Positions 57,001 to 58,966 of a DNA stretch of 58,966 bases are shown one piece after another; position 1 is the stretch's first letter, and the number at the start of each line of letters is the position of its first letter. Source of the stretch: Escherichia phage vB_EcoP_phi367; the sequence record PV189406.1; one strand, 5' to 3'. The position numbers are program-made.

Positions 57001-58966
57001 TGGTGATTATTGTCCTGCTGGTAGCCTGTGGTGCGCTTAGTCTGGGGCTGAATCATTACCGCGATAACGCCATAACCTACAAAGAGCAGCGCGATAAAAA
57101 AGTCAGTGAGCTGGAGCTGGCAAATGCAACCATTACTGATATGCAGCAGCGCCAGCGTGATGTTGCTGCACTTGATGCCAGATACTCGAGGGAATTAGCC
57201 GATGCGAGAGCTGAAAATGAAACTCTTCGCGCTGACGTTGCCGCTGGTTACCGCAGCCTGCGGATCAACGCCACCTGTCCAGGTCCCGTGCGTGAAGCCA
57301 CCGGCACCGCCCGCGTGGATAATGCAACCGGCCCCCGACTGGCAGACACCGCTGAACGGGATTATTTCACCCTCAGAGAGAGGCTGATCACTATGCAAAA
57401 ACAACTGGAAGGAACCCAGAAGTATATTAATGAGCAGTGCAGATAGAGTTGCCCATATCGATGGGCAACTCATGCAATTATTGTGAGCAATACACCCGCG
57501 CTTCCAGCGGAGTATAAATGCCTAAAGTAATAAAACCGAGCAATCCATTTACGAATGTTTGCTGGGTTTCTGTTTTAACAACATTTTCTGTGCCGCCACA
57601 AATTTTGGCTGCATCGACAGTTTTCTTCTGCCCAATTCCAGAAACGAAGAAATGATGGGTGATGGTTTCCTTTGGTGCTACTGCTGTCTGTTTGTTTTGA
57701 ACAGTAAACGTCTGTTGAGCACATCCTGTAATAAGCAGGGCCAGCGCAGTAGCGAGTAGCATTTTTTTCATGGTGTTATTCCCGATGCTTTTTGAAGTTC
57801 GCAGAATCGTATGTGTAGAAAATTAAACAAACCCTAAACAATGAGTTGAAATTTCATATTGTTAATATTTATTAATGTATGTCAGGTGCGATGAATCGTC
57901 ATTGTATTCCCGGATTAACTATGTCCACAGCCCTGACGGGGAACTTCTCTGCGGGAGTGTGCGGGGATAATCAAAAACGATGCACACCGGGTTTTCTCAT
58001 TTTTCACGAGATGGGAGCGATTTCCCGCGAAGCCGCCTGTCCGGTGCGGTGGTGGAAGAAACCGGATAAAACAACCGCATTGTGCAAATATCGATCAAAT
58101 ATGGTGCTGCTGTGTGAAATCTGAAAAATCACAGCGGTCATTATGCATCAGTTTTTAACACAGGACGTCAGAACGTGACATGGCAAAGCTGGACTGGAAA
58201 AAGCTGGAGCAGGCATTCCGACGCGAACATGCCGAAACGGGAATAACATTACTGGACTGGTGCCGGAAGAAAAAGATTAATTACAACACCGCCAGAACCC
58301 GTATAAAAATGGGCAAAATCGATCATGAAATTGATCATAAAACCGATCATGAAATCGATCATGACATCTCAGATGAAGAACCCTGCAATGACGCGGGTTC
58401 CGGCGATGAAAAATGCGCAAAAAACTCTGAAAAAAACTGCGCAAATTCGGCAGAAACGAAACGGATTCGTGGTTCCCGACTTTTACCACCTTCAAACGCT
58501 TTTTCTCAGCGAAACACCCACGCCGTAAGACACCGTGGATATGCGAAGTATCTTGAGGCAGATAACCTCATGGATGATGCGTCCGACATGGTGCTGTTCG
58601 ATGAACTGGTGTTCACCCGGGCCCGCGCACTTTCAGTAACTAAGGCACTTAAAGGGATGTTCGCCGACCTGGAAGAGGCAACTGACGTGGAAACCCGTGT
58701 TGCTCTTTACGACAAAATACTCAAAGCTGAACAGGCCCTTGACCGGAATATTGCCCGTATCGAGTCAATTGAACGCTCATTGCTGACGCTGGACGTCCTG
58801 GCTGAGACAGCACCAAAACTTCGTGCTGACCGGGAAAGAATCAACGCCGCCAGAGATAAACTCAGAGCTGAAACCGATATTCTGACCAGCCAGCGTCGGG
58901 GCGTTGTTACGCCTGTCAGTGACATCGTGTCATCGCTGCATGAAATGAGTAATTCGGGGAGACTGG

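Follow-up and report, generated by a model that had tools for sequence, protein, structure and literature searches.

A small terminase gene divided between the two ends of the Escherichia phage vB_EcoP_phi367 record: a 933W-like genome very probably linearised at the terL start codon

Why does a reading frame that resembles a small terminase gene run off the last base of the genome record of Escherichia phage vB_EcoP_phi367, while the large terminase gene begins at the first base of the same record? The record (PV189406.1, 58,966 nucleotides) was analysed as a whole and is called the window below. A preliminary description of it proposed that the open frame closes over the terL start, and that the record is therefore a circular assembly, an excised or replicative phage genome, or one unit of a tandem array. 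Of these three options the circular assembly describes the record best, as that of a circularly permuted genome linearised at terL, and we hold with high confidence that the window is the complete, single-copy genome of a temperate 933W-like phage, a circle opened at the terL ATG and carrying a headful-type terS/terL module. The features around the two ends of the window are as follows.

58180..58966, plus strand: 5′ part of terS (small terminase), codons 1-262 and the first base of codon 263 (ORF reading, PHROG 370)
1..20, plus strand: 3′ end of terS, consisting of the last two bases of codon 263, codons 264-268 (ending DIPEE) and a TGA at 18-20 (sequence; misc_feature of PV189400)
1..1707, plus strand: terL (large terminase), 568 amino acids, whose ATG starts at the record's first base (ORF list, PHROG 2, T4 gp17)
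58956..58962, plus strand: putative Shine-Dalgarno-like GGGGAGA, 4 nt upstream of the terL ATG and within the terS coding sequence (sequence reading)
1707..3851, plus strand: portal protein (P22-like), the next gene of the packaging module (Pfam PF16510 P22_portal, E = 8e-127)

The terS frame opens at the ATG at 58180, which is preceded by an in-frame TAA at 58156 (the sole alternative in-frame start is the ATG at 58309), and it remains unbroken to 58966, a distance of 787 nt or 262 codons plus one base. Joining 58966 to position 1 gives (g)at gac att ccg gaa gaa tga, in which the bracketed g is the last base of the record and the TGA occupies positions 18-20; the joined product has 268 amino acids, and its gene shares 20 nt with terL. 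Recomputation thus returned the same stop and the same 20-nt overlap as had been described. Since terS ends 20 nt inside terL, an origin placed at the terL ATG cuts terS into pieces of 787 and 20 nt. Between 57400 and 58966 the promoter/terminator scan gave no terminator ahead of the junction, a result that weakly fits read-through from terS into terL. No direct repeat of 8-400 nt (the range tested) joins the window ends; the circle therefore appears to have been cleanly trimmed, with nothing that favours direct terminal repeats.

An ORF left open where a linear sequence stops could also mean that the window is a fragment, either an excerpt of a prophage or a truncated contig, and that the in-frame closure over position 1 is a coincidence; the open ORF is all that speaks for this. 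We built a 2-kb junction probe from the last 1,000 and the first 1,000 bases of the window, and searched it against a phage collection and complete E. coli genomes. At least 13 phage records (including Stx2 phage 86, VT2phi_272, PA2, PA8, and Shigella phage 75/02) contain the probe unbroken and with 100% identity, and in 179 phage records a single place covers at least 80% of it. At the same threshold it was found in 400 of the 5,426 complete E. coli genomes, where 506 of the 510 places are chromosomal. In prophage-ordered records of 62,708 bp, window positions 58100-58966 map to 29501-30367 and window positions 1-25000 begin at 30368, so that bases 58966 and 1 of the window, which fall on the adjacent bases 30367 and 30368, are neighbours. 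Annotation agrees with the alignments: PA2 has terS at 34752..35558 and terL at 35539..37245, and the O104:H4 chromosome has them at 684286..685092 and 685073..686779, in both cases in mid-record and with an 807-nt terS and a 20-nt overlap. From the match coordinates, whole prophages, when rotated at attP, are also collinear with the window in both of its halves, and in related prophages terS/terL sit in mid-prophage. The end-to-start join proposed earlier is thus continuous DNA in hundreds of independent phage and chromosome records, to which it is 100% identical over 2 kb, and the joined protein matches a known 268-residue protein at 100% identity; these two observations rule out a fragment that closes by coincidence, a reading to which we give next to no probability and which also sits badly with the collinear halves and with the phage DNA found on both sides of attP (see below). 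Judged by comparison of sequences, and not by statistics, the terS/terL join is not a chance event.

The identity of the joined protein was established from its profile match and its relatives. TerS aligned end to end with PHROG 370 ("terminase small subunit"; residues 1-268 on profile positions 1-284 of 284, E = 3.8e-125), and it is 100% identical over all 268 amino acids to the annotated small terminases of PA2, TL-2011c, phi191, and others, which bears out the naming of the "terS-like" frame as terS. The gene lies directly upstream of terL, in the same orientation, and overlaps it across the 58966-to-1 join. Its homologues (n = 379, mostly named "terminase") come from Escherichia, Salmonella, Citrobacter, Serratia, Dickeya, Pectobacterium, Yersinia, and Aeromonas. 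The sequence had no match in Pfam and NCBIfam (up to E = 10) or in the PDB, and a Foldseek search of the predicted structure against the PDB returned generic coiled-coil helical hairpins alone (E of 0.29 or higher), with no TerS among them. Because these sequence and fold searches were unhelpful, the TerS label rests on the profile match and on synteny.

In an alignment of 31 TerS homologues, residues 1-45 form a conserved N-terminal domain, which is followed by a low-complexity, non-conserved linker and then by a strongly conserved central and C-terminal region. The C-terminal tail RLDDIPEE, whose last residues are encoded at window positions 1-17, is conserved in the Escherichia/Salmonella/Citrobacter branch. 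The AlphaFold (AF2) model computed from this 31-sequence alignment (mean pLDDT 70) predicts three N-terminal helices (residues 6-41), a disordered segment (residues 45-106), and a long helical hairpin (residues 130-237) with pLDDT of 94-97; as far as a model can tell, this layout is compatible with the usual TerS plan.

TerL matched the terminase large subunit profile PHROG 2 (E = 1.2e-53) and, in the PDB, the ATPase and nuclease domains of T4 gp17 (E = 1.6e-7), with no credible match in Pfam and NCBIfam even up to E = 10. We observed more generally that TerL of the widespread 933W-type group is recognisable only through PHROGs and through a weak resemblance to T4 gp17. Over its first 1,000 nt, terL has 99.9-100% identity to 933W and its relatives, and window positions 1-25000 are 95-99% identical to Sepvirinae records; the phage is a temperate, short-tailed, 933W-like member of the Sepvirinae.

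The closest well-known reference for the module is 933W itself (AF125520), in which L0112 ("putative small subunit terminase") occupies 28775..29581 (807 nt) and L0113 ("putative large subunit terminase") occupies 29562..31268. Similar to the joined window, 933W has an 807-nt terS, a 1707-nt terL, and a 20-nt overlap between them; the nucleotide identity across the 2-kb junction is 99.9%, as it also is for VT2-Sakai, and the neighbours are the same (bor and Rz upstream, the portal gene downstream). Two differences separate the records: 933W was linearised elsewhere, which leaves its terS whole and in mid-record, and 933W has stx2, whereas the window is without it. The modules of P22 (gp3/gp2) and Sf6 (gp1/gp2) share with the window the order terS-terL-portal and a P22-like portal, and a further likeness to these pac-type phages, generalized transduction with permuted DNA, is taken from the literature on 933W (PMC3752737). 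Unlike P22 and Sf6, the window's TerS has no detectable sequence or fold similarity to solved TerS structures, and its TerL sits in a separate "933W-type" class.

Could the two ends of the window instead be the true ends of the virion chromosome, formed at the terS/terL boundary by a cos site or by short direct terminal repeats? Annotators' notes on some of the sister records do speak of "cohesive ends ... joined". Ends of this kind would fall within conserved coding sequence, however, and no terminal repeat is present. Moreover, at least four other records of different phages begin exactly at the terL ATG, which points to a convention: those of vB_EcoP_phi296 (PV189400), phi315 (PV189403), and phi419 (PV189407), the window's closest records, which were published together with phi367 (Microbiol Spectr 2025, PMC12502783), do so, and in CP111102 (EDL933-Stx, flagged as circular) terS likewise reaches the final base. 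PV189400 carries misc_features over its last 787 nt and over 1..20 that read "terminase small subunit; circularly permutated genome", and PV189403 bears the same terminal 787-nt "terminase small subunit" feature. The three sister phages share with the window the start at the terL ATG, the division of terS into 787 and 20 nt, and a 100% identical terS, and they differ from it in their early regions and total lengths (the closest covers only 63% of window positions 28000-52600).

What is known of packaging in this group also stands against physical ends. 933W is a generalized transducer that transfers chromosomal markers at high frequency, with a co-transduction limit of about one genome length, and the ends of its virion DNA could not be sequenced, which was interpreted as terminal redundancy (PMC3752737). 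Its TerL defines a recognised class, "Headful (933W type)" (PMC7317114, PMC6029569), terminal redundancy and permutation are described for relatives that have 933W-like head genes (PMC9144972), and T4 gp17, to which the window's TerL is related, is a headful enzyme. One result speaks against the headful reading: for Lys19259Vzw (MT225101), which has the same terS/terL as the window, PhageTerm returned "Mu-like" and not pac, a call that arose from host DNA at the read termini (PMC7946995); generalized or lateral transduction in a phage of the headful type, and not transposition, may account for this call. Taken with the features above, we regard physical ends at the terS/terL boundary as very improbable, and the linear start as a bioinformatic convention.

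On the preferred explanation, a circle linearised at terL, virion DNA would have been assembled as a circle and then opened so that base 1 became the A of the terL ATG. The terS and terL genes would form one overlapping, co-transcribed packaging module. TerS, with its predicted N-terminal helical DNA-binding domain, disordered repeat-bearing linker, long helical hairpin, and C-terminal tail, would recognise pac on the DNA concatemer and bring in TerL, and TerL, as a T4 gp17-like ATPase-nuclease, would fill heads through the P22-like portal by the headful rule. Such filling would produce terminally redundant, circularly permuted chromosomes without unique ends; and since headful genomes have no unique ends, the start of any linear record of them is arbitrary. 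After injection the DNA would circularise and could integrate through attP (at about 29.05 kb) into wrbA. The headful mode and the roles of TerS and TerL are here inferred from the 933W literature and from homology; the ORF arithmetic, the unbroken junction, the gene identities, the relation of attP to attL and attR, and the common record start were shown directly.

Rotation of a genome to the start of terL is a convention of Pharokka/dnaapler. We infer that the origin of the phi367 record was set at terL by the annotation workflow, a step that its publication (PMC12502783) does not state. There phi367 (PV189406) is listed in Table 2 as a non-Stx phage of 58,966 bp with three tRNAs, sequenced by nanopore from virion DNA and annotated with Pharokka (PMC12502783). 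The authors warned that the assemblies of phi296, phi315, and phi367 were ambiguous at first and could be chimeric (PMC12502783). The eight primers published for phi367 all map exactly and convergently in the window, and the PCR/Sanger bridges that they define span 22438-23720, 33887-38800, 41216-43104, and 49394-50374, none of them at 58966/1. For phi315 the primer pair is S77 and S76 (PMC12502783). S76 is the exact reverse complement of window positions 1-20; any S77/S76 product would therefore need to cross the junction, and the contig border was already the terL start when the primers were designed.

A related question is whether the sequenced molecule was a monomeric circle or one unit of a head-to-tail concatemer or of a tandem prophage array. 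In headful phages, replication yields concatemers and a virion packs more than one genome length of DNA, and assembly turns either kind of molecule into the same circle. The DNA came from purified phage particles (PMC12502783), and the window contains no duplicated segment. A concatemer is not really distinguishable from the explanation by a permuted circle, nor does it conflict with it; as a separate account we give it very little weight.

The position of the integrase and of attP was also taken up in the preliminary description, according to which a circular record without prophage flanks would explain why both lie mid-window. The relevant features are:

29048..29064, no strand assigned: attP core CATGGTTTCAACATGTC, 17 bp, the wrbA integration site (alignment with O104:H4 attL/attR)
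29080..30414, minus strand: tyrosine integrase beside attP, a 444-residue ORF, annotated as 1,311 nt in relatives (ORF list)

The integrase is 99.9% identical to an annotated integrase that adjoins wrbA in many E. coli chromosomes, and chromosomal matches to the int region start at window position 29048 and extend into wrbA. When the window was aligned with both ends of the O104:H4 wrbA prophage, the core CATGGTTTCAACATGTC proved common to attP, attL, and attR; in the window it has phage DNA on both sides, whereas in the O104:H4 chromosome the outer sides are wrbA DNA. Because attP has phage DNA on both arms, the window represents the excised or virion form, and on the circle attP and the terL origin are nearly opposite each other, which places int and attP in mid-window. 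An intact attP that matches the attL and attR of the O104:H4 wrbA prophage thus upholds the argument that the record has no host flanks. An integrated copy with attL and attR had been expected at about 28.9 kb: the attachment sites exist, and the core lies slightly to the right of that point, at 29,048-29,064.

We observed (T)TTGGGGCA motifs repeated at 28875-28935 and at 29120-29145, on either side of the attP core, with GGGGCA-type repeats at about 28.9 kb to its left. The (T)TTGGGGCA repeats may serve the integrase as arm-type binding sites, and the earlier placement of attP at about 28.9 kb probably reflects them. A separate observation concerns NZ_CP133131.1, a circular sequence of 63,329 bp from an O157:H7 assembly that is named "plasmid unnamed2" and is full of phage genes. 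It has the same int as the window and an uninterrupted attP region, and is on these grounds evidently a lambdoid phage in its excised form that was deposited as a plasmid; upstream of int it carries other genes than the window does.

The linker of TerS contains one further feature of possible relevance to packaging:

58316..58368, plus strand: 12-bp tandem repeat AAATCGATCATG, 4.4 copies, in frame, in the terS linker (TRF)

The repeat encodes IDHE/IDHK/TDHE/IDHD, has one GATC (Dam site) per unit, and falls in the part of the linker that is predicted to be disordered (residues 45-106). Its copy number differs among relatives: there are three copies in LC645411 and LC727874, four in the window and 933W, and more in a variant protein of 280 amino acids; distant TerS homologues carry unrelated repeats in the same linker. 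In phage P1, pac consists of clusters of Dam-methylatable TGATC(A/G) hexamers. The four units in terS each hold a GATC and read TGATC(A/G) on the minus strand, in which they resemble P1 pac. They depart from it in that terS has no second hexamer cluster, that the copy number varies freely among relatives, and that the region encodes a disordered linker in which distant homologues have unrelated repeats. Nowhere else in the window is GATC as densely clustered as in terS, but at least four GATC within 60 bp occurred in 32 of 200 shuffles, and the cluster is simply the tandem repeat; we therefore rejected it as evidence for a pac site. By analogy with P1, the GATC repeat (58316-58368) might form part of the pac site of 933W-type phages, with Dam-sensitive use and with the number of copies tuning packaging initiation or the frequency of transduction, an idea that we consider unlikely; a slippage-prone disordered linker is the favoured reading. 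In a group of Stx2a prophage records of about 48-51 kb, an IS3-family (IS629-like) element breaks terS directly after the repeat (region 1501-3257 of LC727841.1, corresponding to window position about 58356), so that these prophages are without an intact small terminase.

Several features elsewhere in the window were recorded in passing. Three tRNA genes (Met-CAT, Arg-TCG, and Arg-TCT) lie at 51807-52056, and about 530 nt further on there is an ORF of 645 amino acids (52587-54524), esterase-like, which in Stx phages occurs downstream of stx. No stx genes were found in the window, and there is no room for them; phi367 is a Stx-phage backbone without the toxin, in line with its published description (PMC12502783). 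Just before attP, an ORF at 21250-28542 encodes 2,430 amino acids; its counterparts in O104:H4 and PA2 have 8,382 nt (2,793 amino acids) and are annotated as "LPD38 domain-containing protein", so that the window's version is about 360 residues shorter, and related podophages have DarB-like giant proteins at its position (PMC9144972). The G+C content peaks at 0.62 in 8001-10000, compared with about 0.50 for the genome, inside an ORF of 754 amino acids (8403-10667) in the tail-fibre region.

The terS/terL module of phi367 is thus an ordinary one of the 933W type; it has been annotated since the 933W record, its division between record ends was flagged by the depositors of the sister records, and it is in this sense already known. 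Since the whole genome is present in an arbitrary rotation, no biological cause has to be sought for the order of the genes, for the place of attP, or for the "missing" end of terS. The value of the finding is mainly one of bookkeeping: in any phage whose terS and terL overlap, which holds for the whole 933W/Sepvirinae group, rotation to the terL start truncates terS, and automatic gene callers then lose the small terminase, which the sister records keep only as a hand-made misc_feature and not as a CDS.
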